Shown here in pieces: positions 9,755 through 58,320 of a stretch of DNA of 64,000 nt; position 1 is the first letter of the stretch, and every line of letters begins with the position of its first letter. The position numbers and the translations under genes are program-made. This stretch comes from a virus (taxonomy: Duplodnaviria > Heunggongvirae > Uroviricota > Caudoviricetes), in IMG/VR virus record IMGVR_UViG_3300031998_000007; one strand, written 5' to 3'. The notes under the pieces are model-generated. The model was not told where the DNA came from. It did no database searches and worked only from the letters and a program-made list of their open reading frames with translations.

Positions 9755-9769
9755 TTTTTGCTATATTTC
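9755..9769 (+). promoter_or_regulatory. extended -10 promoter motif TTTTTGCTATATTTC
   Basis: Conserved AT-rich 15-mer in GC-rich DNA; ends 7 nt before the ATG at 9777 (leaderless arrangement). Confidence 0.6.
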
Positions 9770-9776
9770 ATCTACC

Positions 9777-11225
9777 ATGGTAGAAACAGTAACTTTTTCC
9801 GAACTCGAAGAAAACTTGGAGTTCATCCCGCCGGAAGTGGCCGTCCTGCTGGTCGGCCCGGCCGGTATCGGCAAATCCTCGTTTGCCAAAGCCTGGGCTG
9901 CACACCAGGAAGGGTATCGCTATTACGAGAAGAATGTCGCGGAAGTCCTTGACATAGGCGACTTCCTGGGACGCAACAGCGTGGTTGACGGGCGCACCGT
10001 ACTCAATCCACCGCCATGGTTTTCCGATACGGAAAAGACTATCCTCTTTATCGACGAAATCAACCGTGCGGGCGCGAACTCAATCGTCCGCGGCTGCATG
10101 GGTCTTGTCCTCAACCGTGCAATCGCCGAGCTCAAGATGCCGGAAGGTTCCCGCATCCTATCGGCAGCGAACCCGGATATGGGGCCGATGTATGACATCA
10201 TTCCCTTCGATCTTGCGCAGTCCGACCGTTTCTATGTCGCCGAGGTGATGTGCGATGCCCAATACTGGCTGAACCGCATCGCCGGGCCGCAGCATTTCAA
10301 CTCCGCCGTTGTCGAGTTCATTCGCAAGTACCCCGATTATCTCCACCAGCTTTCCAACCCGAAGCTCGCAAACGACGCCATGACACGCGAGCATTACAGA
10401 AACGTGCTCTCCACGCCGCGTTCCTGGGACATGTTCAGCCGTTCTCTCAACAACATGGAACGCAAGATGGGTGAGGGCAATCCGCCTACGCGTAGGCGCC
10501 TGGAAACACTCGGTGCCGGCTTTGTCGGCCCGCTCCTTGCGACCAGCTTTGCGACATTCTACCTCGACATGAAGGTGCTGTCCAAGATTGACGTGATTGA
10601 AGTCCTCACGCAGGCAAACATGAGCATTGAGGAACATGACAAGGCCATGAAGGTTCTCGAAGAGATCGTCAAGACGGATCCTACTCGCGCAATCGGCATG
10701 CTTACCGACATCCACAGTTACCTCCTTCACGAGGGGGCGACTGTGCTCAAAAAGAAGATTGCCCTGGCTGCCATCGCGGAAAACTATTATACCATCATGA
10801 GCATGTGTTCCGCCGAACTGCGCCAGCTTGTGTTTACCAATCACCTGACCCCGCTGGCTGGGCAGAAGGGATGCTATATCGACCGCATCCGTTCTGTGAA
10901 GCCGGAAGTGGAGGACCTTTTCGATACTAAGAAAACCGTTCTGCCAAAATCACGGGCAGGAGTGCTCCCGATACAGACCCAATGGGCAAATCCGACCAAC
11001 CAGGAATTCGACAACCTCGCCGACGCGTGGTCTAAGCCGGGTTCGGGTGTCTCCGGGCCATTTACGGTGACGCCGTCAAGCAATCCAGATGCACAGAGGC
11101 TGCTCAATTCATTGAAGACCCAGATGCAGTATAATTCGGCAAAGGTCGATAATATTGCGACGACGCTCACCGATACCGACTTGATAGATCTGTCGCCGGC
11201 AAGCGATGGTTCCAGGACAGCATAA
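9777..11225 (+). CDS. MoxR-like (AAA_5) AAA+ ATPase
   Basis: Walker A GPAGIGKSS; ILFIDEINRA motif typical of MoxR/CbbQ-type ATPases. The ORF tool starts at 9720, but that extension is the promoter translated (FCYIS). Confidence 0.65.
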   Translation: MVETVTFSELEENLEFIPPEVAVLLVGPAGIGKSSFAKAWAAHQEGYRYYEKNVAEVLDIGDFLGRNSVVDGRTVLNPPPWFSDTEKTILFIDEINRAGANSIVRGCMGLVLNRAIAELKMPEGSRILSAANPDMGPMYDIIPFDLAQSDRFYVAEVMCDAQYWLNRIAGPQHFNSAVVEFIRKYPDYLHQLSNPKLANDAMTREHYRNVLSTPRSWDMFSRSLNNMERKMGEGNPPTRRRLETLGAGFVGPLLATSFATFYLDMKVLSKIDVIEVLTQANMSIEEHDKAMKVLEEIVKTDPTRAIGMLTDIHSYLLHEGATVLKKKIALAAIAENYYTIMSMCSAELRQLVFTNHLTPLAGQKGCYIDRIRSVKPEVEDLFDTKKTVLPKSRAGVLPIQTQWANPTNQEFDNLADAWSKPGSGVSGPFTVTPSSNPDAQRLLNSLKTQMQYNSAKVDNIATTLTDTDLIDLSPASDGSRTA

Positions 11226-11227
11226 GA

Positions 11228-11252
11228 AAAGGCCGCATCTAGCGGCCTTATT
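11228..11252. terminator. bidirectional intrinsic terminator
   Basis: aaggccgc-atcta-gcggcctt hairpin flanked by A-run and T-run between convergent genes. Confidence 0.55.
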
Positions 11253-12160
11253 CATTTCGTCATGCGCAATCGCGGCACAAATTCCTTTGACAGCCACCCA
11301 TGCAGGTGCATCCGTGCCATCAGGTCCTCCCGCATCGCTTCCAGGTATGGAATGAACTGCGGGTGGTCATACTTGTTCATTGGTCGCACATGCGGCTGGT
11401 GGATGATGCCGTTATCCCCGTTCGGCACGGCATATACCGGTATTCCGCTGTAAAAGCACTCCAGGCCGAGGAACCCGTCCTCCCCACCCCATGTCCCGGT
11501 GAACTCGGAGGAGAACACTTCTTCCCGGCCGTATAGGGATGCGTTCATGCTGCATAGCTGCTTGATGGCATACATGTTCAGGCCGAAGTTGCAGGTCCAG
11601 ACGACACCGCTGTCAACGAACCAGAACTCGTTGTCGATGAGCCTCGGGGTGTCCGTGAACAGGTGGCAGACAGACTTGGGGCTTGCCATGCGCTGGTCTT
11701 CCATGTTCCAGATGATTTCCCTGCGGCGACCGACGGTGGCGATCGGGGAGCTCTTTTCGGACAGGGTATCGACATGCCCCGAAATCAGGTGCGGCTCGGG
11801 TACGCAGTCTCCGTCGATGAAGATTACGTAGTGGAAGTCGTTCTTGATTGCGTATTCGACCTGCGTATTCCTCACGTAGCCGGTAAGGAAATAGTCCGAA
11901 CCGGCGTTCATCTGCGGGTGCCCCACCCATTCCGGGTACCCCTCGCTCTTGAGTATCTTGACGAAACCGAGGTTGCCGTCGGCTATCCGGTTGGCCTTGG
12001 CATAAATTTCCAGGGCTTCCTCGTATTCGCCGGGTTGCGGGCGGTCGATGACATACCGGCACTCGGTCGGATATACGCTCAGCTTGGACAGCCGGTCCAG
12101 CATCTTCGGGAGGAAGATGTTCTGGCCATGGGCCGGGATTACTAGCAGAACCTTTATCAT
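11252..12160 (-). CDS. putative glycosyltransferase (GT-A fold, DXD)
   Basis: FIDGDCVPE DXD-like motif; N-terminal VLLVIPAHGQ beta strand typical of nucleotide-sugar transferases. Weak. Confidence 0.4.
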   Translation of the reverse strand: MIKVLLVIPAHGQNIFLPKMLDRLSKLSVYPTECRYVIDRPQPGEYEEALEIYAKANRIADGNLGFVKILKSEGYPEWVGHPQMNAGSDYFLTGYVRNTQVEYAIKNDFHYVIFIDGDCVPEPHLISGHVDTLSEKSSPIATVGRRREIIWNMEDQRMASPKSVCHLFTDTPRLIDNEFWFVDSGVVWTCNFGLNMYAIKQLCSMNASLYGREEVFSSEFTGTWGGEDGFLGLECFYSGIPVYAVPNGDNGIIHQPHVRPMNKYDHPQFIPYLEAMREDLMARMHLHGWLSKEFVPRLRMTK

Positions 12161-13542: not shown

Positions 13543-13547
13543 GCTAC

Positions 13548-13563
13548 GAAATATAGCAAAAAC
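13548..13563 (-). promoter_or_regulatory. extended -10 promoter motif (minus strand) for the helicase gene
   Basis: Reverse complement gtttttgctatatttcg ends 5 nt before the ATG at 13542. Confidence 0.55.
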
Positions 13564-13608
13564 TGGTGGGTTATAAACTACGGGTTAAGGCCTGAAAGGT
13601 AATCTGAC

Positions 13609-14850: not shown

Positions 14851-14876
14851 GGTCTAAACTACTTTGTATTGAAGTC

Positions 14877-15401: not shown

Positions 15402-15816
15402 CCTTTCTGGCAAGCTCCCGCCTTATTTTCCATGACCGGTAGGAATACCAGATACGTAAAATCCTGCCATGCAGCCTGTGCAGCGCCAGGCGGATGCGCC
15501 AGGTGCGCGGATAGTCCTTGCGGTAGTTGTCACGCTCCCAATCGTCATAGATGCGGTCGGCAAACGCCATAGCCTCTTTTTGGGTGAGATCCCCGCCATA
15601 GCTGTCGCCGGTTATCGAACCGACGCATGCGCCGAAATATTCGCAACCTTGGCACATCGAGGATGCGTAAAAATTGCAGAAATCACACGGAAGGAACCTC
15701 TTTTCGGGGTCGTGGTTTGCAAATGCAGGCGGTTTGGGGGTATCGCTGACCTGTTCCTTGCCAGGCGGCAACAGGTCGGTCTTTTCGGAAAAGTTACATT
15801 CTTGATATTCAGCCAT
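15388..15816 (-). CDS. hypothetical Cys-rich protein
   Basis: CDFCNFYASSMCQGCEYFGAC cluster. Start moved to the internal ATG at 15816 because the upstream 15 codons are the promoter motif translated (GFCYISG). Confidence 0.5.
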   Translation of the reverse strand: MAEYQECNFSEKTDLLPPGKEQVSDTPKPPAFANHDPEKRFLPCDFCNFYASSMCQGCEYFGACVGSITGDSYGGDLTQKEAMAFADRIYDDWERDNYRKDYPRTWRIRLALHRLHGRILRIWYSYRSWKIRRELARKAKNG

Positions 15817-15820
15817 GCCC

Positions 15821-15835
15821 GAAATATAGCAAAAC
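15821..15835 (-). promoter_or_regulatory. extended -10 promoter motif (minus)
   Basis: gttttgctatatttc, 4 nt before the ATG at 15816. Confidence 0.55.
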
Positions 15836-16362: not shown

Positions 16363-16459
16363 CTTGCAATTCCTGTTGGTGTTTTATACCCTAGTTTATA
16401 GTGCCCGGACGTAGTCATAAAACCTAGTTTACGGTCAGTAATCTACAAACGAGGCAAAA

Positions 16460-19986: not shown

Positions 19987-20826
19987 CTAGGTTTTTACGA
20001 TGCCGGTACATTCTTCGAAGAGTTCCTGCAAATTTGCGTTTTTTCGCAGTTTTTCGAGGGCAGCCATCTTGATCGTCCTGATGTGGGCCTTGGAGACCCC
20101 CGTGCAGGCCGCGATGTCCTTGGACGTCATGTCGTAGCCGTTGAAGCCGAAGGACGAACATACCACGCTGAGCTCGCGCTCATCGAGGGTTTCCTTCATC
20201 GCGGCGAGCAGGGTTTCCCTGACCGCCGGGTCCAGGAACGTAGTGTCCACGTCGGCATCCGTCGTGCCGGTGAGTGTGTCCTCTATCGTCACGCTGCCGT
20301 CCTCCGTCACCCTGTCGTATGTGGAGCAGGTGTTGTAGAGCACCGCCTCGGCTTCCTCGCCGAACATGACGCTGCTTGCCGGCTTGCCTTCCTTCTTTGC
20401 CTTGATGACGCGCTGGCGCACCTTCGGCGGGAGGTGTATCGGGTCGGACGTGTCGATGAACTGCTGCATCTGCCAACGGATGTACCATACGGCGTAGCTA
20501 CCGAACTTCGTCGTCTCGTCGGGGTTGTATGTGTTGATGGCGGTCATGAGGCCGAGCTTCCCGGCTGCGTAGAAATCCGTCACCGGGAGCTGGTAACGCG
20601 CGGCGTAGTCTGTCGCCATGCGGAAAACGAATCTCAGGTGGGATTGCATTATGCGGAGCTTGATAGTCTCGCGGTATGAGCGCTTCCTGGTCTTCTTGTA
20701 TATCCTGAACATTTCGCGCTCGGTGGCGTCGTCGAGGATTTTGCATGCGTGAAGTTCCGCAAAGATTGTCTTCGGCGTGCCGCCTAGAATGGGCTTTTGC
20801 ATTGTGCAACCATTCAGTTTTGTCAT
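19987..20826 (-). CDS. sigma-70 family RNA polymerase sigma factor
   Basis: Region 2 TKFGSYAVWYIRWQMQQFI and region 4 HTH AHIRTIKMAALEKLRK. Start set at MTKLNG (20826): the 11 upstream codons of the ORF-tool start are the promoter motif translated (KFVYYS). Confidence 0.75.
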   Translation of the reverse strand: MTKLNGCTMQKPILGGTPKTIFAELHACKILDDATEREMFRIYKKTRKRSYRETIKLRIMQSHLRFVFRMATDYAARYQLPVTDFYAAGKLGLMTAINTYNPDETTKFGSYAVWYIRWQMQQFIDTSDPIHLPPKVRQRVIKAKKEGKPASSVMFGEEAEAVLYNTCSTYDRVTEDGSVTIEDTLTGTTDADVDTTFLDPAVRETLLAAMKETLDERELSVVCSSFGFNGYDMTSKDIAACTGVSKAHIRTIKMAALEKLRKNANLQELFEECTGIVKT

Positions 20827-20830
20827 AGAA

Positions 20831-20845
20831 TAATATACAAATTTC
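20831..20845 (-). promoter_or_regulatory. extended -10 promoter variant AATTTGTATATTATT (minus) for the sigma gene
   Basis: TGTATATTA, 4 nt before the ATG at 20826. Confidence 0.5.
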
Positions 20846-20930
20846 AAATATTTTTCCAAAATGCTTGGAATGAATTTTCAAAAAATATATTTTAGTAGCA
20901 TAATCACTACATAAAACGCGCAGGTGTAAA

Positions 20931-22800: not shown

Positions 22801-22815
22801 TTTTTGCTATATTTC
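22801..22815 (+). promoter_or_regulatory. extended -10 promoter motif TTTTTGCTATATTTC
   Basis: 7 nt before the rtcB ATG at 22823. Confidence 0.6.
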
Positions 22816-22822
22816 TTGCATT

Positions 22823-24028
22823 ATGATAGAAATTCCGGGAAAATACTGTACGGCGAAGGTCTATACCGACAATGTCGAGGAGGCCGCGCTTAAACAGATA
22901 ATGAACTTGATGAACCAGCCGTTTGCGGCGGGTTCCAACTGCGCAATCATGCCCGACTGCCACGCGGGCGTGGGTTGCGTTATCGGCCTCACAGCAAAGA
23001 TTACCGACAAGGTGGTCCCGAACCTGGTGGGGGTGGATATCGGGTGTTCTATGCTTGTCCTCAAAGTGGACAAGTCGTTCGCGTTCGACCTGAAGCAGGT
23101 GGACAAGATTTGGCACCGCGACATCCCGTCCGGCATGAACCACCGCAAGTCCAAGCACAAGTATGCCGACAAGGCTGACCTCGAAAACATGATAGCCCCG
23201 GTGAACGTGGACAAGCTGAAACTGTCCATCGGGACACTCGGCGGGGGCAACCACTTCGGCGAAATCAACGTAGATGATGCGGGCAACCATTACATCGTCA
23301 TCCACTCCGGTTCCCGGCACCTCGGCATCGAGGTATGCCGCTATTACCAGGACCTCGCTATCAAGTATCACCGCAACGACCGTGCGGCGATGCAGGATGC
23401 CATCAAGCAGCTGAAGAAGGCTGGCCGCGAGCGCGAAATCGAGGAAACCTTGCAGAAGATGAACGCGGACCGTCCGGCAATCCCGAACGAGCTCGCCTAT
23501 CTCGAAGGCGCCCTCATGGAAGACTACCTGCATGACATGAAGATTGCGCAGGAGTTTGCCATCTGGAACCGCGAGGCAATGATGGACGTGTTGGTTGACG
23601 GCCTGGGTATCAAGCCAAGGTATGTGCTGGATAAGTGGTGTACCATGCACAATTACGTTGACTTGGAACATAGAATTTTGCGCAAGGGAGCAATCTCATT
23701 GCAGAAAGATGAGATTGCACTAATTCCGATGAACATGAGGGATGGTTCCCTTATCGTCCGCGGCAAGGGCAACTCCGACTGGAACTGTTCCGGTCCGCAC
23801 GGTGCCGGCCGTCTCATGTCCCGTTCCAAGGCCAAGGAGACGCTCAGGATGGAAGACTTCAAGGCTTCCATGGAAGGCATTTATACGACCTGCGTTTCGA
23901 CCGGGACGATTGACGAGAGCCCGATGGCCTACAAGCCGTTCGACGAAATCATGCGCAACATCGAGCCGACCGCCGACATCGTCGAGCGCATCCGCCCGAT
24001 CTACAACTTCAAGGCGTCGGAGGGATAA
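22823..24028 (+). CDS. rtcB: RtcB RNA 3'-phosphate/5'-OH ligase
   Basis: Motifs MPDCHAGVG, GGGNHFGE, HSGSRHLG, HNYV, SGPHGAGR diagnostic of the RtcB family. Confidence 0.9.
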   Translation: MIEIPGKYCTAKVYTDNVEEAALKQIMNLMNQPFAAGSNCAIMPDCHAGVGCVIGLTAKITDKVVPNLVGVDIGCSMLVLKVDKSFAFDLKQVDKIWHRDIPSGMNHRKSKHKYADKADLENMIAPVNVDKLKLSIGTLGGGNHFGEINVDDAGNHYIVIHSGSRHLGIEVCRYYQDLAIKYHRNDRAAMQDAIKQLKKAGREREIEETLQKMNADRPAIPNELAYLEGALMEDYLHDMKIAQEFAIWNREAMMDVLVDGLGIKPRYVLDKWCTMHNYVDLEHRILRKGAISLQKDEIALIPMNMRDGSLIVRGKGNSDWNCSGPHGAGRLMSRSKAKETLRMEDFKASMEGIYTTCVSTGTIDESPMAYKPFDEIMRNIEPTADIVERIRPIYNFKASEG

Positions 24029-25084: not shown

Positions 25085-25109
25085 CCCGGCAGGCGACTGC
25101 CGGGTTTTG
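25085..25109 (+). terminator. intrinsic terminator fused to downstream promoter
   Basis: cccggcag-gcga-ctgccggg hairpin followed by TTTTG that runs into TTTTGCTATATTTC. Confidence 0.5.
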
Positions 25110-25118
25110 CTATATTTC
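25105..25118 (+). promoter_or_regulatory. extended -10 promoter motif
   Basis: TTTTGCTATATTTC, 42 nt upstream of the ATG at 25160. Confidence 0.5.
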
Positions 25119-25159
25119 AATGTGCGGCACATAGTCGCACATTATTTTTATAGGTATTT

Positions 25160-27985: not shown

Positions 27986-28059
27986 AGCACTCGGAAGGGC
28001 TCGAACCTTCGCATGGGGGCTTTGCAGGCCCCTGCCTTGACCAACTTGGCTACGAGTGC
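27986..28059 (-). tRNA. tRNA-Cys(GCA)
   Basis: Manual fold: acceptor GCACTCG/CGAGTGC, anticodon loop CTGCAAA, T-arm GGTTCGAGCCC. Confidence 0.7.
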
Positions 28060-28070
28060 ATAAGATGTAG

Positions 28071-28152: not shown

Positions 28153-28155
28153 GTA

Positions 28156-28226: not shown

Positions 28227-28236
28227 AAAATTTTAG

Positions 28237-28320: not shown

Positions 28321-28325
28321 ATTAG

Positions 28326-28407: not shown

Positions 28408-28411
28408 ATTA

Positions 28412-33137: not shown

Positions 33138-33184
33138 GATATTTGCCGTAAAATCTTGCCCATAGTTTATAGTTTCGGGGAGGA

Positions 33185-33198
33185 ATTTGCTATATTTC
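33185..33198 (+). promoter_or_regulatory. extended -10 promoter motif ATTTGCTATATTTC
   Basis: Upstream of the gene starting at 33252. Confidence 0.45.
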
Positions 33199-33251
33199 CA
33201 TTAAAGGGCGGCCCGTGCCGTTCCATAAACTATTATACCCAAGGAACTGAA

Positions 33252-36795: not shown

Positions 36796-37182
36796 TTATT
36801 TGACAAATTTTGCTGTGTTGATCCAATCCGCGAGCATCGTGGCGACCGCGTTGATTGGTTCCATCACCTTGTTGTGGATGTTCGTGGCGATTTCGATTAC
36901 CTCGTCAACGTATGCCGGGCTCGGTTCCTTGGTGGCCTTGCCGATTTCGATGCGTTCAGGCAGCTTGCACCGGTCATGGATCCACGGGAACCGCAGGATC
37001 GCTTGACAATCCTTGTAGCCCTTCCCGGATTTGAGACGGTGGAACCTGATTTCGATAATTCCGTGGGGGAGGGAAATCTCAAACTCGTGCCAATCGTAGT
37101 AGTTGGCGGAGCAGTGTGCCTGCTTTGATTTGAGGTAGTCGATGGTTTCTTCAAATTTTTGGTCGCGTTCTGTGTTATTCAT
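36796..37182 (-). CDS. hypothetical protein
   Basis: 128 aa; promoter motif 4 nt before the ATG. Confidence 0.5.
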   Translation of the reverse strand: MNNTERDQKFEETIDYLKSKQAHCSANYYDWHEFEISLPHGIIEIRFHRLKSGKGYKDCQAILRFPWIHDRCKLPERIEIGKATKEPSPAYVDEVIEIATNIHNKVMEPINAVATMLADWINTAKFVK

Positions 37183-37186
37183 GCCA

Positions 37187-37213
37187 TAAATATAGCAAAA
37201 ATTGCTATATTTT
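37187..37213. promoter_or_regulatory. back-to-back (divergent) extended -10 promoter motifs
   Basis: aaatatagcaaaaattgctatattt: palindromic pair of TTGCTATATTT elements sharing a centre. Confidence 0.5.
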
Positions 37214-37291
37214 GTATCAGGGCCGTCGGATGGGTAACCCCGGAAACGCCGGAATTATCCCATACCAAACAATCCGACGGACCAATCCATT

Positions 37292-38972: not shown

Positions 38973-39081
38973 CTGCATCCGGTGTATGGGGGCCCGGACG
39001 CTTCCGGCTGTAGTTTATAGATTTCGTGGCGGGCGCCATGGCCGGACTGCCGCGGGCGGTATGCCGCGCTAAACTATCTGT

Positions 39082-39624: not shown

Positions 39625-39639
39625 TTTTTGCTATATTTT
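39625..39639 (+). promoter_or_regulatory. extended -10 promoter motif TTTTTGCTATATTTT
   Basis: 4 nt before the ATG at 39644. Confidence 0.55.
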
Positions 39640-39643
39640 GGTC

Positions 39644-40495
39644 ATGGACTTTATAAATTCCCCATTCCCGTATGCAGGCTGCAAGTATGACCTGCTCACC
39701 CACCTTGACCGGCTCATTCCGCAGGGCGAGCGCCTTTTTGACGTGTTCGGCGGTTCCGGTGCGGTCGGCGTGAACCTTTCCTACCGCTTCAACTACGTAT
39801 GCGTCACGGATATACTCCGCGACCTCGTGCAGATGCACCGCAGTCTCCAGAACGACGACCCGGACCAGGTCATCGCCAGGTTGAAGGAACTTTCATCCAA
39901 GGTCCCGGAAAAGTATGCCGAATTGCGCAGCGCCTACAACGCGCTCCCGCCGAATGACCCGGACCGCGGCTACCGTCTTTACGGACTTATCCTCTCCTGC
40001 ACGAACAACCTGATGCGCTTCAACCTCAAGGGCGGTTTCAACCAGACCTGCGGCAAGCGCCAGCTCACCGACAACAAGGAAAAGGAAATCCGTGCATGGT
40101 GCGAACGCCTGCAGTCCGCCAAGGGCAAGGTGTTCTTCGGCTACGGCTCGTTCGACCGCGTGCTCGACAGCATGGCGCAGCGCATCCCGGCGGAAGGGAC
40201 CGTCGTCTATCTCGATCCGCCGTATTCCAACACGGAAGCCGGCTACAATTCCACATGGACTGTCGCCGATGACGACAAGCTCTCCGCGTTCATGCTATCG
40301 CATCCCGGCTACAAGTATGTCCTGTCCAGCTGCAGCAAGGACGGGAAGACTACCCGACTGGTGGAGACTCTCCGCGACAGCGGAATGTACGACACGACGG
40401 AAGTCCCGCACGTTTACAAGGCCGCCAAGAAGAGCAAGACTTCCGAAACGGTAGAACTCATTTTGTGCAGCAAAAACTGCCAAATTTCGCAGTAA
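39644..40495 (+). CDS. Dam-like DNA N6-adenine methyltransferase
   Basis: FDVFGGSGAV (AdoMet-binding FxGxG) and VVYLDPPYS (DPPY). The ORF-tool start at 39638 is a TTG inside the promoter. Confidence 0.8.
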   Translation: MDFINSPFPYAGCKYDLLTHLDRLIPQGERLFDVFGGSGAVGVNLSYRFNYVCVTDILRDLVQMHRSLQNDDPDQVIARLKELSSKVPEKYAELRSAYNALPPNDPDRGYRLYGLILSCTNNLMRFNLKGGFNQTCGKRQLTDNKEKEIRAWCERLQSAKGKVFFGYGSFDRVLDSMAQRIPAEGTVVYLDPPYSNTEAGYNSTWTVADDDKLSAFMLSHPGYKYVLSSCSKDGKTTRLVETLRDSGMYDTTEVPHVYKAAKKSKTSETVELILCSKNCQISQ

Positions 40496-40509
40496 ATTTG
40501 TATATTTTG
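40495..40509 (+). promoter_or_regulatory. extended -10 promoter variant AAATTTGTATATTTT
   Basis: 3 nt before the ATG at 40513. Confidence 0.5.
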
Positions 40510-40512
40510 ACC

Positions 40513-41625
40513 ATGAACGACTATTGCGCACTCGTAGCATACAAGGAACCGTCGGCGGGGGCATACTTCCGCCGCAGAAACCTCATCGAGGTGGTGAACA
40601 ACTGGCTCAGGAACTTCCCGGAGGCGGACATCGTCGTCACGGAGCAGATCCGTAGCGGGACCGTCGAGCAGGCCGAGGCCCGGTGGGCCGGATATGCCGA
40701 GAAGTTCGTGGATGCCGGGACGGTTTCCCATATCATGGTCGAGTGCGACTACGACGCGTTCCACAAGACCCGCATCCTCAACGAGGCCATCCAGAAGTTC
40801 CCCAACTACAAGTTCTACATCCTCGCGGATGCCGACGCGTTCCTCGACATGGGCGCCTTCGACTATATCCGGGACCACAAGGACGACCATAACCTTGTCT
40901 TCCCGTATGCGGAAGTGTTCTACCTCGATGAGAGCGATACCCGCAACGTCATCAGCGGCAAGCCGATGCGTCCGGGCGTAAAGAACCACGGCGTGGTGAT
41001 TTCCCGCCAGACGGGTCTATGCAACGTGTTCTCCGGGGAGCTTTACCGTGCGGTCAAGGGTTTCGACGAGGAGTTCATCAACTGGGGTGCGGAGGACGAT
41101 GCCTTCTGCTTCAAGGTGAAGCGCCTCGGGCGCCAGGTGATCCGCAACAACACCGGCAGGGGTGCCGTGATGCACCTGTTCCACCCGAAGGTGAACACGC
41201 CGGAGTATGTCAAGTCCCTGGACTACCGCGAGAACCGCAAGCTGTGCGCCTGCATCCGCAAGATGACCGACGAGGACTGGGAACGCTACCTTCGCGGGGA
41301 GGAAGACCTCGGCGGACTTGCACAGGGATATAGCGACCGCGGCGCCCTGGTTACCCACATCGAGTGGCCGTGCGTCCCGGGAATGATCCTCACAATCGAC
41401 ACCACCATCTACGATGTCCTCGCCGACGGCGAGACCGTGGACAGCCTGACCTTCACGAAGCTCATGGACGTGGTGCTCCAGGAGGACGGGCCGGAAGTTG
41501 CCGTGCAGTTCCTCGACAACATCCTCATGCCGCTCAACCCGAAGACGCCCGAACAGCTCGCCGAGCTTAACGGTATCAGGGAGCGCCTCGTTAAACTGGC
41601 TAAGGAAGCTAGAGGCAAGGCATGA
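40513..41625 (+). CDS. GT-A fold glycosyltransferase
   Basis: YILADADAFLD (DXD) and FINWGAEDDAFCFKV (WGxEDDD motif, as in beta-1,4-galactosyltransferase and GT2 enzymes). Confidence 0.6.
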   Translation: MNDYCALVAYKEPSAGAYFRRRNLIEVVNNWLRNFPEADIVVTEQIRSGTVEQAEARWAGYAEKFVDAGTVSHIMVECDYDAFHKTRILNEAIQKFPNYKFYILADADAFLDMGAFDYIRDHKDDHNLVFPYAEVFYLDESDTRNVISGKPMRPGVKNHGVVISRQTGLCNVFSGELYRAVKGFDEEFINWGAEDDAFCFKVKRLGRQVIRNNTGRGAVMHLFHPKVNTPEYVKSLDYRENRKLCACIRKMTDEDWERYLRGEEDLGGLAQGYSDRGALVTHIEWPCVPGMILTIDTTIYDVLADGETVDSLTFTKLMDVVLQEDGPEVAVQFLDNILMPLNPKTPEQLAELNGIRERLVKLAKEARGKA

Positions 41626-44157: not shown

Positions 44158-44283
44158 AATCCCCGATTTTGTGCACATTTGTGCACTAACCTTGGCACCG
44201 TTTTTATTATAAACAATGACTACCCGCCGACGGAAACGGTCCTCCCGCACCGCCGGCCCAACTTCAACCTAAAGGATTCCTAC

Positions 44284-46920: not shown

Positions 46921-46935
46921 ATTTTGCTATATTTC
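46921..46935 (+). promoter_or_regulatory. extended -10 promoter motif ATTTTGCTATATTTC
   Basis: Upstream of the gene at 46968. Confidence 0.5.
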
Positions 46936-46967
46936 CATGAGAAGATAATTGATTTTCGGGGATACCT

Positions 46968-48878: not shown

Positions 48879-49408
48879 ACTTTTCAAAGATTGATCCGAT
48901 GTCCATCGTGGACGGCGAAGGCTGCCGCGTGACGCTGTTCGTGTCAGGCTGCCGGAACCATTGTCCCGGGTGCTTCAACGAGGCTACGTGGGACTTCTCA
49001 TACGGCAAGGAGTTCACCGAAATCGAGGCTAACGAGATTATCGAGGCGTGCCGGAAGCCCTATATCGCGGGCATTACAGTCCTCGGCGGTGAACCGATGG
49101 AGGAGGAGAACCAGCCGGCCGTGCTCGAACTTCTCAGGAAGTTCAGGGCGGAGCTCCCGGAGAAGAACATCTGGCTCTATACCGGCTACGTGATGGAGCG
49201 CGACCTCTATCCGGGCGGAAGGAAGCATGTGCCTGGCGTTACCGGGGAAATCCTGAAACTGGCCGACGTGCTCGTTGACGGCCCGTTCATCCAACAAAAA
49301 CGGGACCTCGCACTGAGGTTCCGTGGAAGTTCCAACCAGCGCATCCTCCGCAAGAAGGATGGCCGCTTTGTGGAAGACGCTACCAGTTCGATTCCGACTC
49401 GAGTCTGA
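48875..49408 (+). CDS. nrdG: anaerobic RNR activating protein (radical SAM)
   Basis: GCRNHCPGCFN CxxxCxxC cluster near the N-terminus, typical NrdG length. Confidence 0.8.
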   Translation: MNFSKIDPMSIVDGEGCRVTLFVSGCRNHCPGCFNEATWDFSYGKEFTEIEANEIIEACRKPYIAGITVLGGEPMEEENQPAVLELLRKFRAELPEKNIWLYTGYVMERDLYPGGRKHVPGVTGEILKLADVLVDGPFIQQKRDLALRFRGSSNQRILRKKDGRFVEDATSSIPTRV

Positions 49409-50075: not shown

Positions 50076-50092
50076 TTGCGTATCTCCTACAC

Positions 50093-50144
50093 AAAATATA
50101 GCAATTTCGGGCCAGTTTTCCTATCTTGAATTTTGCTATATTTC
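50093..50144. promoter_or_regulatory. divergent pair of extended -10 promoter motifs
   Basis: aaaatatagcaattt (minus) and attttgctatatttc (plus), about 25 nt apart, serving the genes at 50075(-) and 50149(+). Confidence 0.55.
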
Positions 50145-50148
50145 ACGC

Positions 50149-50427
50149 ATGCGAGCCGACAAAGTGTTATTCTATCTAGTCAAGCGTAACTCGGACGGGC
50201 TATACCTGGTGGATAGCGGCACGTGCACGTTCGGTAAGTTTTACATGGGGCATACCGCGTCTTCGCGGACACGGGGCGACGCAGACCTTCTCGTCGACCG
50301 TATCATGAAGCGCAGGGGGATGAACCGTGACGAACTTTCCGTGGTTGCGGTCGGGGAGCTAGACACTTCAACAAAAGAGGACAATCAATGTCTATCCCAC
50401 TCATCTGTATCATTGCCGGAGCAGTAA
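50149..50427 (+). CDS. hypothetical protein
   Basis: 92 aa; leaderless arrangement. Confidence 0.4.
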   Translation: MRADKVLFYLVKRNSDGLYLVDSGTCTFGKFYMGHTASSRTRGDADLLVDRIMKRRGMNRDELSVVAVGELDTSTKEDNQCLSHSSVSLPEQ

Positions 50428-52200: not shown

Positions 52201-53010
52201 TTGAAAATGTCCTATTCGCTGTTTTTCGGTGACTGTCTGGAGGAGATGAAGAAGCTCGCCCCCAAGTCGGTCGATATGATCCTATGTGACCTCCCCTACG
52301 GCGTCACGCACAACCCGCACGACAAGCGTATTGCCTTCGCGCCCCTATGGGAACAGTATGAACGCGTCATCAAGGACGACGGGGCAATCGTCCTGTTCGC
52401 CCAGGGCCTGTTCTACGTTGACCTGGTGCAGTCCAAGCGCAAGCTGTTCCGCTACGACCTGGTCTGGAACAAGAAACTCGTCACCGGGTTCCTGAACGCC
52501 AAGCGCATGCCTCTCCGCTCCCACGAGCAGCTCGCCGTGTTCTACAAGACCATGCCGAAGTTCCACCCGCAGTTCCATGAAGGGAAGCCCCTCCACGGCC
52601 GCGGCAAGTCCTACATGTCTAAGGACATGGTGAACAACAACTACGGCAAGTTCAAGGCCACGGACGACGTCCGCAAGGGTAGCACCCAGAAATACCCGGT
52701 GTCCATCATCGACATCCCGAAACCGCACCCGTCCAAGTCCGAACACCGCACGGAAAAGCCCGTGGAACTTCTTTCCTGGCTTATCCGTTCCTACACGGAA
52801 CCGGGCGATGTCGTCCTTGACAACTGCATGGGATGCGGCAGTACAGGCCTTGCCGCGCTGAAGGAAGGACGCACGTTCATCGGCATGGAAATCGACAAGG
52901 AATACTTCGAGATTGCCTGGACACGCATTACCAAGCTGGCTGCCGACATGAACAAGGGCGACTTCCACGATGGCATCAAGACTGTCTTCAAGGAGGAAGC
53001 CGATGAGTAG
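52201..53010 (+). CDS. beta-class DNA methyltransferase (N6-adenine or N4-cytosine)
   Basis: VDMILCDLPYG (motif IV D-L-P-Y) near the N-terminus and C-terminal VVLDNCMGCGSTGLAA (motif I): circular permutation typical of the beta group. Confidence 0.75.
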   Translation: MKMSYSLFFGDCLEEMKKLAPKSVDMILCDLPYGVTHNPHDKRIAFAPLWEQYERVIKDDGAIVLFAQGLFYVDLVQSKRKLFRYDLVWNKKLVTGFLNAKRMPLRSHEQLAVFYKTMPKFHPQFHEGKPLHGRGKSYMSKDMVNNNYGKFKATDDVRKGSTQKYPVSIIDIPKPHPSKSEHRTEKPVELLSWLIRSYTEPGDVVLDNCMGCGSTGLAALKEGRTFIGMEIDKEYFEIAWTRITKLAADMNKGDFHDGIKTVFKEEADE

Positions 53011-54289
53011 TAAAGCTGACATGGAACTGATGGAACCGAATAATTCCGTCGGGTTTCCCGTTCGTGCAGAAAAGTTTGCGAATGAATGGGTTGCCAGGTT
53101 CCCATTCAGGGAGCGGTTCGGCATCCGCATGCAGGGATTAGACATCGACACCAAGGTGTTTGACCGCCGGGTACCCATTCTCTACCGCGAGCGCAAGCAG
53201 GAAGTCATGGATGCGCTCGGGTTCACCATGATTAGCCACATGCAGAAAGATACCTACGATTTTTGGAGCACGAGCTACCCGCAAGTGGATGTGGTCGAGG
53301 ACATGGTCAAGAATGCGTTTTCCAGGACGGATGGCTACCCGGACCGGCTCACGTCGGCAATCAGGACGCTCAATCCCGATTGGGAATATGGCCAGCCGAC
53401 CAATGCGGTAGGCGTCCTGTTTACCGGAGGCCTGGACAGCACGGCGCTAGTCCTCAAGAACCTGGACGAGGGAAAGGTCGTCTTACCGATTTACAACTGG
53501 ATTAACTCCGAGTTTAAAGTTGCCCCGATACTCGCATATACGATGCTTGCCGCAATATCGAAGACCTACAAGGGCCCGGGCATCCTGATGCCTATGTATC
53601 GTGGCATCAATTTCCCTGCCGGGACGTGTAACTATGGCGGCAAGTTCGAGGGTTTCATCCAGCAGCCGGTCAATACGTTCAGCCTTGCCTACATCAACCC
53701 GCAAATCACGTCCCTGCTGGACGAGGTGCAGATGGGAATTGTCAAGGGGGACCAGTCCGAGACGTTCATCGAGGACATGCGGAAACTTTATGACGGCACG
53801 TTTGCGCTCAGTCACCTGTACGGAAACCATGCACCGGAGTTCGAGAGCCAGGTTGCCCGCAAGCCGTCCTATACGTTCCCGCTCATCAAGTGGGACAAGG
53901 CCATGGTTACCGAGTTCGTGGAGAAGCACGGCTTGGGCGGTCTCCCGCTCAGCTGCGAAGCGCCCTCGATTGCCTGCACGGTGTATGCCAAGTTCACCGA
54001 TGAGGAACGTGCGATAATCTACGGGCCCAGCGGGGACATGGCGATCAAGAGCGTCTTTGCCGGTCCTCGCCAGTGGTTGCTCCATGTGGTAATTTGCGAC
54101 TGCGATGATTGCCATTCCTGCGGGAGAAGCCGCAATGAGGGCTATAATACGCGTGCAGTCTCGTTGCAATTCGGCATGGAAACCCTGGGCGGGGACGATA
54201 TTGACCCGGCGTTCATTGACTACGGGGACATAATTAGGCCTGGCGTCACAATACGCAACGATGTCATGGTCCCGCACCTGTACAAATAA
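53003..54289 (+). CDS. PP-loop ATPase domain protein (QueC/ExsB-like) with extra N-terminal domain and C-terminal Cys cluster
   Basis: VGVLFTGGLDSTALV (SGGxDS PP-loop), C-terminal CDCDDCHSCGRS; GGAGGAAG ribosome-binding site before the ATG at 53003. Confidence 0.55.
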   Translation: MSSKADMELMEPNNSVGFPVRAEKFANEWVARFPFRERFGIRMQGLDIDTKVFDRRVPILYRERKQEVMDALGFTMISHMQKDTYDFWSTSYPQVDVVEDMVKNAFSRTDGYPDRLTSAIRTLNPDWEYGQPTNAVGVLFTGGLDSTALVLKNLDEGKVVLPIYNWINSEFKVAPILAYTMLAAISKTYKGPGILMPMYRGINFPAGTCNYGGKFEGFIQQPVNTFSLAYINPQITSLLDEVQMGIVKGDQSETFIEDMRKLYDGTFALSHLYGNHAPEFESQVARKPSYTFPLIKWDKAMVTEFVEKHGLGGLPLSCEAPSIACTVYAKFTDEERAIIYGPSGDMAIKSVFAGPRQWLLHVVICDCDDCHSCGRSRNEGYNTRAVSLQFGMETLGGDDIDPAFIDYGDIIRPGVTIRNDVMVPHLYK

Positions 54290-54295
54290 AACAAA

Positions 54296-54323
54296 GACGC
54301 CGCAGGAAACTGCGGCGTTTTTC
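54296..54323 (+). terminator. intrinsic terminator
   Basis: acgccgcag-gaaa-ctgcggcgt followed by TTTTT. Confidence 0.65.
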
Positions 54324-54349
54324 GTTCCGGCACCCGGAATGACTTTTGG

Positions 54350-54778
54350 TTACCATTCGACGATGAAGCGGGTCTCGAGAAAGCGCTTCTCGAATTCCTT
54401 CTTCTGCTGTACGCGCGGGTCAGATGCCGCATTGTCGAGGGTGATGATGTTGGACGGCTTGTCTTCCGTGACCTTGAACCCGTTGTCCTTGAGCTTCTGG
54501 ATGAGGTCATGCTGCATCTGGTACATCTCGTTCACGCGGATGTCGTCCGCCTTCTGGCCGGCACCGGCGAACTGCATCTCGAAGAAGTTCTTCTTCATGA
54601 TGTCGACGGGGCAGCCGCGGACGCCTGCCGCAAGAGTCATTCGTTCAAATTCCTGAAGGTGGGTCTTGTAAACGCGTTCGATTGCCGGGAGATTGGCAAG
54701 TTCTGCAAGTCTTTCTGCGTCGTTCATGATGTCTCCGTATAAAAGGGGTGGCAGTTTTCCGTTACCGGGTTTGATCAT
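54350..54778 (-). CDS. hypothetical protein
   Basis: 142 aa. Confidence 0.5.
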   Translation of the reverse strand: MIKPGNGKLPPLLYGDIMNDAERLAELANLPAIERVYKTHLQEFERMTLAAGVRGCPVDIMKKNFFEMQFAGAGQKADDIRVNEMYQMQHDLIQKLKDNGFKVTEDKPSNIITLDNAASDPRVQQKKEFEKRFLETRFIVEW

Positions 54779-54943
54779 CCCGAGGCTGCCAACTCGTCCG
54801 GCTTACGATCCGGCCACTACGTGACGCACAGTTTGCACGTCCGACCGCGCAGACGATTTCGCTACCAGGGGAGGAGCTAATGCCTGCCGTCTTAGGTTCG
54901 GTGGGATGTTTCGGTCCGCTCTAGAAACGGCTGTGACATTAAA

Positions 54944-54966
54944 TATACAAAAATGCCGGCGCCGGT
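54944..54966 (-). terminator. intrinsic terminator (minus)
   Basis: ccggcgccgg palindrome followed on the minus strand by CATTTTTGT. Confidence 0.5.
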
Positions 54967-54974
54967 CCAAGCGA

Positions 54975-55145
54975 TTAACGCCTTTTCTTCCGGTTGAGGA
55001 ACCGGAGCTGGAAGTAGTCGCCCTTGTAGCCGCATTCGACTACGCTGTCGGAAAGGTCCGGGATGACGACTTCGGGGATGAACGGGCGGATGAACGTATC
55101 AACCAGGCGTGCTCGTAAGGATTTGCGTTTGATGTGTTTGCTCAT
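54975..55145 (-). CDS. small basic protein (56 aa)
   Basis: MSKHIKRKSLRARLVDTFIRPF...; below the ORF-track cutoff; followed immediately by a terminator. Confidence 0.3.
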   Translation of the reverse strand: MSKHIKRKSLRARLVDTFIRPFIPEVVIPDLSDSVVECGYKGDYFQLRFLNRKKRR

Positions 55146-55200
55146 GCGATGAAACTAGGTTATCCGGCAGGAAAAATGTATATTTGGGACGGAGGCATAT

Positions 55201-56184
55201 ATGCGAACACTTCAAGCATTTCAACGCGAATACTACAGGTTCTGCCATGACGACCGCACCCCGTTCGAGCGGGACGGCATGCGCCTGTTGCCGGTGGACA
55301 TCAAGCGGGATGAGAAAAACTTTACGCCGCACGGCATGCTGGTCGGGAACGGGCCGATTGCCGGCAAGAAGACCGAGGTCAAGGTGGCACAGGTCTGTGC
55401 ACTCGTCCCGGCGCTCGCCATGCCCGTAGTGGTGAAGACCGAGGACGGCAAGCAGGAGTTCTATTCCGACTGTGCGGAAATACTGCCGAAATGGGAACTC
55501 GACACGTTCGCCGAGCGGATGGTCAAGGAGTTCGGTGACCCGAAGAAGGGCGACTTCGACGGCCTGTTCGAGTTCAACATGACGACCATCCGGTATGTCG
55601 GCCCGGGTGCCGCGAGCGACATGCACACAAGGGGCTGGACGCTTGACATCGCCGGGCACAAAGGCATGTTCACCGACATTGTCGGGAAGGATGGCGGTAG
55701 CCACCTGTTCCGTCTTTCATACGGCGAGAACAAGCACAGGGAGTGGGCGGATGTTACCGATGCCGACGTGGAGAGGGTGGTTTCCCAGCTGCGCGAGTTC
55801 ATCAAGGTCCATACCGGGAAATGGAACGCCAAGCGCATATACACCCACCTGGACGACACGCTCGGCGAGTTCTTCGTAATCAACGAAGACGGGGTCGCGT
55901 TCATTCCGGCAATCCGCCTTGCACTGGCCAGGCGCAAGTCCCTTGCCTCCCCGGTGATCGTGAGCGCGAGCGGTTTTGCCGTCGTTCCCTGCGACAAGAA
56001 CGGGGAGAACGAGAACGCGATAGTCGGCGTCGAACTGGACAAGTTCTGCGATGCCGACTACATCGCACTGTTCAACTACGTAAAGAATACGCTGGCGACC
56101 GCATTCGCCTACCTTGCCGCCACAATAAAAAGAAACGAGCCGACCATTGATAGTCAGCTCGTCAAGCAAGAGGCCAAGGACTAG
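55201..56184 (+). CDS. hypothetical protein
   Basis: 327 aa. Confidence 0.55.
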   Translation: MRTLQAFQREYYRFCHDDRTPFERDGMRLLPVDIKRDEKNFTPHGMLVGNGPIAGKKTEVKVAQVCALVPALAMPVVVKTEDGKQEFYSDCAEILPKWELDTFAERMVKEFGDPKKGDFDGLFEFNMTTIRYVGPGAASDMHTRGWTLDIAGHKGMFTDIVGKDGGSHLFRLSYGENKHREWADVTDADVERVVSQLREFIKVHTGKWNAKRIYTHLDDTLGEFFVINEDGVAFIPAIRLALARRKSLASPVIVSASGFAVVPCDKNGENENAIVGVELDKFCDADYIALFNYVKNTLATAFAYLAATIKRNEPTIDSQLVKQEAKD

Positions 56185-56648
56185 GCCTTTGCGGATGTCT
56201 CCGGGAGGTCTCCCACGTCACGCAAGTATGTGAGGCGGGAGCAGAACTCCTGGACGGTCAGCACCGTGTGGTGGGTGTCGTGCTTTCCCACGGAGTGGGT
56301 GAGCGTCGCCTTGTTGGTCGCGAGCAGTGCGCTGCGGAACCCGGGGTTCTTGTTCAGCTGGTTGTATGCGCGGTTCAGCAGGATCTGGTATGCTTCGGAG
56401 TCACGCTTGATGGGGATGCCCTTCCAGTAGAGCGTCTGGTCGCGGTACCAGTTCTTGTGCTTGCCCTTGTGCTTTGCCTTGATGCCCACGAGAGAGCATA
56501 CGTAGATCTGCATCTCCGGGTTGGAGAACTTGAGCGATTGCAGGAAGCCTTCCATCGAGGCGCACTCCACCCCGTCGAACGTGAACGGGTGAGGGGCGAA
56601 GTTGCTGAGGGTTCCTGCCGGGTATGAGTTGTTGCTTCCAATATCCAT
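56181..56648 (-). CDS. NADAR (YbiA/DUF1768) domain protein
   Basis: LSNFAPHPFTFDGVECASMEGFLQSLKF matches the N-terminal signature of NADAR/YbiA. Confidence 0.7.
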   Translation of the reverse strand: MDIGSNNSYPAGTLSNFAPHPFTFDGVECASMEGFLQSLKFSNPEMQIYVCSLVGIKAKHKGKHKNWYRDQTLYWKGIPIKRDSEAYQILLNRAYNQLNKNPGFRSALLATNKATLTHSVGKHDTHHTVLTVQEFCSRLTYLRDVGDLPETSAKA

Positions 56649-56670
56649 AGTAGTTACCTCTTTGATAACT

Positions 56671-56703
56671 GAAATATAGCAATTTTCGTTTTTGCTATAT
56701 TTC
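56671..56703. promoter_or_regulatory. divergent pair of extended -10 promoter motifs
   Basis: gaaatatagcaatttt (minus) and gtttttgctatatttc (plus), each followed by a GAGG ribosome-binding site and ATG about 22 nt away. Confidence 0.55.
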
Positions 56704-56724
56704 AGTCAACGAAAGAGGTTACAC

Positions 56725-57774
56725 ATGTCAGAACAATTCCATTTTGCCGGCCTTGACCTGAAAGAAGTGCAGGTCCCCGGCTTCACGATGCACACACAGA
56801 CCAAGCGCACCCGCATGTTCAAGATTGAAAACTTGGACATCCCCAGCTATTCGATTACGGCGCGTGACGCCCTCGGAACGGACGAACGCCGCGAGGTTGG
56901 CCGTTTCCGCATCTACAATATCTATTTGCTGATTTCTGCGGAAATCGGCGACAACAACAACAATTATTGCTGGACGACCGATAACAAGGTCCTGTATGAC
57001 ATCTACGACACATCCGTTTCTGTCGGCGGGCACACTTACCAGGTCAGGTCTCCCCGCATTGGCGACGGCAGTGGCATTCGCGACTGGAACGCCTCCGTGG
57101 ACTACGAACAGAAAACCAATTACCATGGATGGTTGCAGACCCACCTCAGTTCCATTCACTGGGCACACGGATTCTTTAACCCGGCCGCGGGAAGCAAGCG
57201 TTTCTTCAATGACGCCCCGCTCGACAAGTGCCTGGAAAACGCGGAAGAAAAACTGAAGATTAGCTACATTCGCGACCAGCTTGAACGCAATCTTGGCGAA
57301 ACGGCACGCGACGTTTTCAACGCCATCGTTTCGTCGATAGAAGAAAAGTATGCCGACCGTTTCGGTTCGTATTTTGACGCAACTACCCAGCGCGTGGTGA
57401 AATCCGTCACAAACGTGGACTTTGACCGCGACCTGGACATGGTGGGACGCATTACCCTTACTCCGGCAGGCTTTGCCCAGGTATGCAAGGTATGTGCCGA
57501 TACCGAACGCAAGGAGCTTTTTGAAAACTGGAAAGCATACTGCACCGAATCGTTCCGCCACCAGATTAAGACGCATGAAAAGATGAGTTCGGTAAGCATC
57601 TACGTTCCGGTCATCCGCCCGTGGTCGTTCGAAGCGTATTGCGCAATCCACGATCGCCAGGCAAAGGAAGATTTTTCCGCGGCGGAAGAAATCGCAAAAC
57701 AGCTTGCCAAGGACACCGGGAAGGAGTTCAACGACGATCCGGTCCTCTATTCAACAGGGTACAGCAATGACTAA
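56725..57774 (+). CDS. hypothetical protein
   Basis: Start at MSEQFHF after an AAAGAGG ribosome-binding site; the ORF-tool TTG start lies inside the promoter. Confidence 0.5.
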
Positions 57775-58261
57775 CGAAGAAAACAAAGACAGAACTATCA
57801 CCCCCGGCAGCACCTGGGCGCACTTCAAGGGCGCCACTTCCCAGGTGATTACCGTCGCCAAGCACTCCGAGACAGGCGAGGAACTCGTCATCTACAAGTG
57901 CATGGGCAACGCGGGGAAGACCAACCACAAGGACGGCATCTACGCCCGACCGAAGGAAATGTTCCTTTCCGAGGTTGACCGTGCGGCCTACCCGGAAGCT
58001 ACCGCGAAATACCGCTTCACCAAGATTAGCGACGGCCCGGCGCCGCATCTCTATCTGGTGAATACGCGCATCCGTGCGGTGAACCCGGACCATGAAGGTT
58101 CGATCCCGACGAAGGACGGGCTGCCCTATCGGCTGAAAAGCAACAAGACCGGCGCTGCCCTGTACGACGACCTCTGCTGCCAGGTGCATGAACAATCGAA
58201 CGACAGCGCCCTGACTGTCACGGATGTTATCGGGTTTACCGACCTCGGACCCGCCGATTAG
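57764..58261 (+). CDS. hypothetical protein (DUF1653-like)
   Basis: [35 protein letters not shown]...[11 protein letters not shown] resembles DUF1653. Weak. Confidence 0.45.
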
Positions 58262-58285
58262 CGTAAATCGGCAGATTTTTACAGG

Positions 58286-58310
58286 AACCCACCGCATACG
58301 GTGGGTTTTT
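58286..58310 (+). terminator. intrinsic terminator fused to promoter
   Basis: aacccaccg-cata-cggtgggtt followed by TTTTG that is the start of the promoter motif. Confidence 0.55.
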
Positions 58311-58320
58311 GCTATATTTC
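58306..58320 (+). promoter_or_regulatory. extended -10 promoter motif TTTTTGCTATATTTC
   Basis: Followed by a GAGGTAAAAAT ribosome-binding site and the ATG at 58337. Confidence 0.55.

Follow-up and report, generated by a model that had tools for sequence, protein, structure and literature searches.

Does a short AT-rich element that recurs ahead of genes in a phage genome serve as a promoter and, if so, what reads it, and how are the genes behind it translated? We studied this question in one phage, in a 64,000-nt stretch of DNA (the window; 56% G+C) from IMG/VR record IMGVR_UViG_3300031998_000007. Exact matches to its proteins occur on contigs of 415-473 kb from bovine and other ruminant gut metagenomes, and the source is an uncultivated, distantly T4-like huge phage. 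A preliminary description had read the element as a reiterated extended -10 promoter that often gives leaderless transcripts, and this reading agreed with every sequence test that we ran. The element, which we call class A (the TGC/TATATT motif) to distinguish it from a second motif, class B ((cTA)TAAACTA), is likely to be the core promoter from which the phage transcribes its non-structural (early or middle) units; it would be a single-element, extended -10 promoter that is independent of a -35 element.

The enrichment of the element is read directly from the sequence, as are its placement, orientation, conservation, and spacing. Fifteen exact copies of the core, TGCTATATT, are present in the window against 0.22 expected, and none of 100 shuffled sequences reached 15. 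The degenerate pattern given in the preliminary description was likewise counted 15 times, with 0.05 expected, and all 17 positions listed there proved correct: 15 are exact TGC cores, and the other two, at 20831 (-) and 40495 (+), are TGT variants (TTTGTATATT). Additional variants were found at 54947 (-) and 55179 (+), and possibly also at 2163 (-) and 38363 (+); the 15 exact copies and four variants make 19 sites in total (Table 1). In an unbiased k-mer census of the window, the 9-mers of the motif ranked first in over-representation (about 60-fold). Other over-represented 9-mers, ACAAGTATG and ACTTCAAGG, are located within genes, and their enrichment is read here as an effect of codon usage and not as a signal, the strand of each copy being unchecked site by site against the coding strand. 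A literature search for the motif string returned unrelated primers only, and the string was not reported in this context.

The anatomy of the element was determined from an alignment of the 15 exact sites. Their consensus is (a/t)tTTTGCTATATTT(C/t), which can also be written tTTTG(C/t)TATATTT(C/t), and TTGCTATATTT is invariant across the alignment. A short T-run at about -19 to -16 is followed by TG at -15/-14, C (sometimes T) at -13, TATATT at -12 to -7, and T(T/C) next. The TG of the extended -10 lies one base 5' of the hexamer in every exact copy (15 of 15) and in each of the four TGT variants, and TATATT is present in all copies; hence, T-12, A-11, and T-7 of the TANNNT pattern are there in each. 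The seventh base after the hexamer, at which transcription would be expected to start (+1), is A in 12 of the 15 sites, and the base at -1 is C or T, again in 12 of 15. The A is kept in six of the eight exact sites whose ATG lies far from +1; thus, its conservation is not merely that of a start codon. Upstream of about -20, the 15 aligned sites gave no column information. A two-hexamer scan with TTGACA/TATAAT matched a -35 element at just one of the exact sites that it covered, and an upstream k-mer census of 24 non-redundant class A sites from four lineages found no k-mer that they share. The predicted geometry is therefore that of an extended -10 promoter that dispenses with a -35 element.

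A promoter of the Bacteroidetes type (-33 TTTG / -7 TAnnTTTG) was also considered and was rejected. G is never found as the eighth base, which is C, T, or A; TTTG is absent at the prescribed distance of 19-21 nt upstream; and many genes have Shine-Dalgarno sites of the GGAG type.

The placement of the element is strict. According to our gene map, intergenic DNA makes up at most 7.6% of the window, and all 15 exact copies lie between genes or abut a start codon, with none within a coding region; every copy is directed at the downstream gene. Both properties had been claimed in the preliminary description, as had three back-to-back divergent pairs, which are real (37187/37201, 50093/50130, and 56671/56688) and make near-palindromes (AAATATAGCA...TGCTATATTT). 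At three sites (9755, 39625, and 40494), the motif fills gaps of just 17-22 nt between genes. The high invariance and the near-palindromic pairs would suit an operator for a phage DNA-binding regulator, or a target of recombination or of an endonuclease, that merely overlaps weak promoters, but most copies are single, asymmetric, and strictly oriented with the downstream gene. Such a site would also leave the conserved +1 A and the fixed distance to the ATG unexplained, and the three short gaps fit no other promoter-like sequence; we consider this explanation extremely improbable.

Two copies, at 25105 and 58306, had been described as fused to the preceding terminator. Both have hairpins of about -20 kcal/mol whose U-run is the T-run of the motif, and we found a third fusion at 15821 (-), also with a hairpin of about -20 kcal/mol. 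Processing sites that mature phage mRNA occur immediately 5' of start codons, and class A is AU-rich, often follows a stable hairpin, and stands in the same position. It might thus be a signal at the RNA level, namely a site of the RNase E or phage endonuclease type at which polycistronic transcripts are cut upstream of gene starts. This is very improbable in our view: no correctly oriented upstream transcript is expected at the three divergent pairs, the element has the exact TGnTATAAT geometry with a purine at the canonical +1, and some copies come after intrinsic terminators that should stop upstream transcripts.

If class A is a promoter, a bacterial-type RNA polymerase with a primary-like sigma factor would bind it through sigma regions 2 and 3 and would initiate at the conserved A, seven bases past the hexamer. 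At eight of the 19 sites, this A would be the A of the ATG or lie 1-3 nt before it, and the product would be a leaderless mRNA translated without a Shine-Dalgarno sequence. Leader lengths are based on spacing, taking +1 as the seventh base after the hexamer. Calculated in this way, the ATG lies 0-3 nt from the predicted start at eight sites (about 40%), so that the leaderless claim, put at about half of the cases in the preliminary description, stands as a prediction from spacing. The initiator is ATG at all eight, at a distance from the hexamer of exactly 6 nt in five cases and 7-9 nt in three more, which leaves no room for a Shine-Dalgarno sequence. The remaining sites have predicted leaders of 10-75 nt. 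A canonical Shine-Dalgarno site had been claimed for all of these; a clear GGAG, GAGG, or AGGAG is present in about five or six of the 11, that is, about half, but the rest are without one.

Some of the short leaders are supported by comparison with relatives, whose contigs are designated here by L numbers. In the case of the helicase gene, the order of hexamer, 7 nt, and ATG is kept in three lineages, and the protein aligns from residue 1; the promoter arrangement is kept in L004, L005, L007, and L016. In the case of the AAA ATPase gene, hexamer and ATG are 9 nt apart in the window and 7 nt apart in L016 and L014, and the leaderless arrangement and the N-terminus are conserved in two lineages. 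Independent public gene calls agree on both starts (461 aa for the helicase; 482 aa for the AAA ATPase, corresponding to the start at 9777).

The RtcB gene has a 3-nt predicted leader in the window (22808-22825, +) and a leader of about 25 nt with GGAG behind the same promoter in three relatives (compared at L004 7250-7296, -). Such a difference suggests that initiation has recently switched between the leadered and the leaderless mode. Because RtcB differs in this way behind the same promoter, the two modes of initiation would interconvert within the phage family.

The motif had also been held responsible for errors in gene calling. The open reading frames (ORFs) at 9720, 15861, 20859, and 58301 are indeed extensions, made by taking the first start after a stop, that run through the motif, and a better downstream start exists for three of the four; the start of the gene at 15861 was not settled by orthologues. 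The gene for the sigma factor cannot be counted as leaderless, as its motif-adjacent ATG is absent in relatives and the conserved start is 20802, 24 nt further on.

The element is conserved beyond the window. In relatives with 71-72% identical sigma and helicase proteins, the motif is present at orthologous positions and the flanks have diverged. In the divergent region at the helicase gene, compared among five sequences, conservation is limited to the two start codons, the class A motif, and another motif on the opposite strand. An exact 14-mer scan of IMG/VR gave mostly single chance matches in AT-rich contigs, together with three contigs of the family at about 55% G+C (L062, L075, and L129). 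L062 is 90% identical to positions 52342-58311 of the window. In L075, which comes from a rumen sample shared with L010, a terminator-fused motif precedes the DNA polymerase gene; L129, which belongs to a 224-kb contig, has one copy ahead of an exonuclease gene and a further copy 6 nt from an ATG. Protein-pattern scans of IMG/VR with the helicase and the sigma factor found no relatives, and neither did GTDB genome scans (NrdD; helicase alignment). Among GenBank phages, megablast with 15 kb of the window gave no match, and tblastn with the helicase gave nothing above about 30% identity.

Class B was found while we searched for a -35 element. TAAACTA occurs 10 times in the window against 1.66 expected, and ATAAACTA occurs six times against 0.42. 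Its copies are intergenic, directed at genes, and conserved in relatives, with examples in L004, L007, L009, L016, and L075. They precede the baseplate-wedge gene, a prohead-protease-like gene, and genes in the gp13/gp15 region. Class B also fits TANNNT, and two copies (2070, -; 39070, +) lie 5 nt ahead of an ATG. The two classes stand in tandem at 33188/33226 and back to back at 13548/13574. A k-mer census upstream of 21 class B regions found nothing consistent. AGTTTA, which recurs upstream of some class A sites, is the class B motif on the opposite strand. Class B is probably a late promoter class. The late promoters of T4, TATAAATA, are read by gp55/gp33/gp45; class B resembles them as a single -10-like element upstream of structural genes and differs from them in sequence at three positions. 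To our knowledge, a late-type element that abuts start codons is not a feature of T4. About 50 proteins of the window were scanned against PHROG, and none was gp55-, gp33-, or AsiA/MotA-like.

A hybrid of the two classes, TGCTAAACT, in which the TGC is that of class A and the TAAACT hexamer that of class B, was observed at 30696-30704 (-), upstream of a 43-codon ORF, a terminator-like hairpin, and tRNA-like repeats. The sequence AAAACCTAGTTT(A/T)CGG occurs at 16418-16432 (+) and 36038-36055 (-), with related copies in L004 and L007; on the opposite strand it reads as a class B-like AAACTAGG.

The genes behind class A are non-structural: those for the AAA ATPase, the helicase, RtcB, an HNH-like protein, Dam and other methylases, a glycosyltransferase, a homing-endonuclease-like protein, an SPFH/flotillin protein, and a gp30.3-like protein, and, in other contigs of the family, the DNA polymerase (L075) and the exonuclease (L129). 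From gene content, we infer that class A is early or middle and class B late.

The next question is which sigma factor reads class A. The window encodes a sigma-70-family factor, and the claims that this gene is real (Pfam regions 2 and 4) and that it is located behind a TGT variant were borne out. The protein aligns over its whole length with RpoS and SigA, its best solved matches. Its -10/extended -10 segment and the helix-turn-helix of region 4.2 are invariant among three lineages, and the PIH motif of region 3.0 is kept. The closest non-phage homologue, a bacterial primary-like sigma encoded beside pgk and tpi, has 29% identity, which is too distant for inference of the host. The promoter of the sigma gene has a conserved -35-like TTGGAA at a spacing of 16 nt. 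A palindrome-like block, TCCAAGCATTTTGGA, lies at 20855-20869 (-), 5' of the sigma -10, is identical in four sequences from three lineages, and contains TTGGAA; it could be a -35 element or an operator that controls sigma expression.

Given that class A is a promoter, we lean towards the host primary sigma as its predicted reader, with a confidence somewhat above even, and on the same premise the phage sigma is a rather doubtful candidate. The host factor is favoured because the phage sigma gene itself lies behind a TGT variant of the same element; as this gene uses the same T-run/TG/TATATT core, the host polymerase must be able to read the core. The motif is also a near-perfect TGnTATAAT, and the TGT variant at 40498 is built in exactly the same way as the TGC sites. 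Moreover, the late-type class would need a dedicated factor, for which the phage sigma was the only candidate seen.

Several points weigh against our reading of class A. Its 11-14 near-invariant positions, including -13C, the T-run, and TTC after the hexamer, exceed what a housekeeping sigma normally requires, and invariance of this degree is more typical where a dedicated phage factor reads the promoter. The start codons of the genes at 15816, 37182, and 50149 are without confirmation from orthologues, and public gene callers took the longer ORF for the gene at 15861.

The invariance bears in particular on an alternative that we regard as unlikely, in which the same promoter is read specifically by the phage RpoS/SigA-like sigma as a middle class, the sigma being first made from a host-type promoter. 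SPO1 gp28 and phiEco32 gp36 read single, highly conserved elements, and the near-invariance of class A, within the genome and across lineages, is like that of the gp36 promoters. The phage sigma is primary-like along its full length, with the -10/extended -10 segment invariant in three lineages. Its own promoter has the conserved -35-like TTGGAA and the palindrome, in which it differs from class A, and this would fit recognition of that promoter alone by the host. Class B, in turn, resembles T4 TATAAATA and could belong to a gp55-like factor, which would free the sigma for class A. This alternative is difficult to reconcile with the T-run/TG/TATATT core of the sigma gene, and the sigma keeps the region 4.2 helix-turn-helix, yet class A has no -35 element. 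In addition, no gp55-like gene was found in the sequence scanned; thus, the sigma may serve the late class instead.

Quite unlikely, in our estimation, is a full three-step programme in which the host polymerase makes the sigma from its -35 promoter, the sigma then reads the invariant, -35-less TTTTGCTATATTTC and thereby turns on replication and modification genes, and TAAACTA drives the structural genes, with both classes routinely leaderless. Here, the primary-like sigma of the phage would take the place of the T4 MotA/AsiA system. If this were true, a host ribosome, or one modified by the phage, would translate leaderless mRNAs efficiently.

Table 1. Class A sites with their variants, class B copies, and the sigma factor gene in the window (leader lengths are predicted from spacing)
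Position	Strand	Feature	Predicted leader (nt)	Gene and context
9755..9774	+	Class A; TATATT 9762-9767, predicted +1 9774	3	AAA ATPase gene, ATG 9777; site occupies the whole 22-nt gap that separates this gene from the 1658-aa gene
13543..13562	-	Class A	0-1	Dda-like helicase gene, ATG 13542; back to back with class B at 13574 (+)
15816..15835	-	Class A, fused to terminator hairpin U-run (15856-15832)	0	ATG 15816 at predicted +1
20825..20844	-	TGT variant AAATTTGTATATTATT	about 23	Sigma factor gene
22801..22820	+	Class A	3	RtcB gene, ATG 22823
25104..25123	+	Class A, terminator-fused		634-aa HNH-like gene at 25160; hairpin and U-run 25119-25143 in leader
33184..33203	+	Class A		Tandem with class B at 33226 (+); both 5' of 86-aa gene (33252-33512)
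37182..37201	-	Class A, half of divergent pair	0	128-aa gene, ATG 37182 at predicted +1
37199..37218	+	Class A, half of divergent pair	about 74	127-aa membrane-like ORF at 37292
39625..39644	+	Class A, in 19-nt gap	0	Dam-type methyltransferase gene, ATG 39644 at predicted +1
40494..40513	+	TGT variant, in 17-nt gap	0	Glycosyltransferase-like gene, ATG 40513 at predicted +1
46921..46940	+	Class A		Low-GC homing-endonuclease-like gene (46968-48878) between nrdD and nrdG
50088..50107	-	Class A, half of divergent pair	13, with AGGAG	ATG 50075
50130..50149	+	Class A, half of divergent pair	0	92-aa gene, ATG 50149 at predicted +1; SPFH/flotillin gene next
54935..54954	-	Weaker TGT variant TTTTTGTATATTTA		Gene about 157 nt downstream, uncertain assignment
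55172..55191	+	Variant ATGTATATT	10, with GGAGG	ATG 55201
56666..56685	-	Class A, half of divergent pair	18, with AGAGG	gp30.3-like gene, ATG 56648; kept in L062
56689..56708	+	Class A, half of divergent pair	with AGAGG	ATG 56725
58306..58325	+	Class A, terminator-fused	12, with AGAGG	ATG 58337, then EcoRI-type methylase gene
2064..2070	-	Class B
2115..2121	+	Class B
13574..13580	+	Class B
14855..14861	+	Class B
16392..16398	-	Class B
16425..16431	-	Class B
33163..33169	-	Class B
33226..33232	+	Class B
39011..39017	-	Class B
39070..39076	+	Class B
19987..20802	-	Sigma-70-family factor		271 aa, regions 2, 3, and 4; candidate reader of one promoter class

The genes of the window include those for T4-like baseplate-wedge proteins, the Dda-like helicase, an SbcD-like exonuclease, RtcB, NrdD/NrdG, and the sigma-70-family factor, as well as several DNA methyltransferases and an array of 13 tRNA genes. 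The DNA directly upstream of the window encodes T4 gp15-like and gp13-like proteins, and the phage has T4-like neck, sheath-terminator, and baseplate genes.

Some other features of the window were observed in passing. In the leader of the HNH-like gene, the hairpin with U-run at 25119-25143 (+; -14.3 kcal/mol) begins at about the +1 of the promoter at 25108, and relatives have a hairpin of different sequence in the same place (L004, about 4265-4300, -); it may act as an attenuator in the leader or stabilise the 5' end. The tRNA array (27985-30180) is adjoined, just upstream, by three tandem tRNA-like repeats of about 80 nt (30185-30488, -) with ends like those of acceptor and T arms; ARAGORN made no call there, and Rfam made none at the gathering threshold, with a weak tmRNA match of 19.5 bits. 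The homing-endonuclease-like gene (46968-48878, +; 47% GC; 636 aa; DUF7487 and zinc-finger matches) lies between nrdD (44179-46854) and nrdG (48875-49408) and is served by a class A promoter of its own, with a 3-codon ORF upstream of the gene. The EcoRI-type adenine methylase (58843-60867, +) has a Pfam match that is split in two, and a LAGLIDADG-like segment lies in the interior, at residues 275-349; the family match of NrdD (44179-46854, +) is also in two separated stretches. Both proteins may carry intein-like or endonuclease insertions.

The motif offers a regulatory map for uncultivated rumen phages of 415-470 kb, with their transcription units and a probable split between early/middle and late genes. 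It also corrects gene starts, which ORF callers misplace by reading through the promoter or by overlooking a leaderless start. The high share of predicted leaderless starts and the promoters in gaps of 17-22 nt bear on the translation apparatus of the host and could narrow the range of hosts. A primary-like phage sigma together with two single-element promoter classes makes a pairing that can be tested directly in vitro. The system would gain in interest if class A were read by the phage sigma, or if the leaderless bias indicated an unexpected host.

The combination of features can be compared with several known systems. C at -13 is preferred by promoters of the RpoS type, and promoters of Campylobacter and Helicobacter have a T-rich region at -16. 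Class A is like these in -13C and in a T-run that ends in G, with no -35 element; the likeness is one of resemblance only. At the position of the RpoS Lys that is linked to -13C, the phage sigma has Pro-Pro-Lys, and a safe inference of specificity is thus precluded.

Among the closest described cases are the extended -10 (TGn) promoters of sigma-70-family holoenzymes in general. In the Thermus phage P23-45, the middle/late promoters are of the extended -10 class and are active when a phage protein blocks recognition of the -35 element (PMC7403470). Class A shares with them TG one base before a TATAAT-like hexamer, the absence of a -35 element, and a start about 7 nt downstream, which is predicted here. 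It differs in its 11-14 near-invariant positions, with -13C, the upstream T-run, and TTC after the hexamer among them, in a hexamer that is always TATATT and never TATAAT, and in its genes, which are non-structural rather than late. No gp39-like inhibitor was identified in this phage. The promoters of phiEco32 gp36, a phage-encoded sigma, consist of a single element, tAATGTAtA, with the start 6-8 bp downstream (PMC8948821). One short conserved element and no -35 element are common to both systems, whereas gp36 is without region 4, the sigma described here keeps a conserved region 4, and the sequences of the elements differ.

With respect to translation, the transcripts of the Thermus phages YS40 and Lalka27a are mostly leaderless (bioRxiv 10.64898/2026.04.20.719267), and a TA-like signal about 10 nt upstream of the start codon is a marker of leaderless genes (PMC3160421). 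The leaderless units of these phages, of Actinobacteria, and of Deinococcus-Thermus share with class A an initiator A at the 5' end, 6-7 nt after TANNNT, which is predicted in our case (bioRxiv 10.64898/2026.04.20.719267; PMC3160421). By contrast, only about 40% of the class A units would be leaderless, the rest having leaders, about half of them with a Shine-Dalgarno site, and the phage is a T4-like rumen giant known from sequence alone. Compared with these systems, class A appears to be a compact, -35-independent promoter that is specific to the phage and has frequent predicted leaderless starts, in a phage family not previously described; it presents known principles in an orderly form and no new mechanism.

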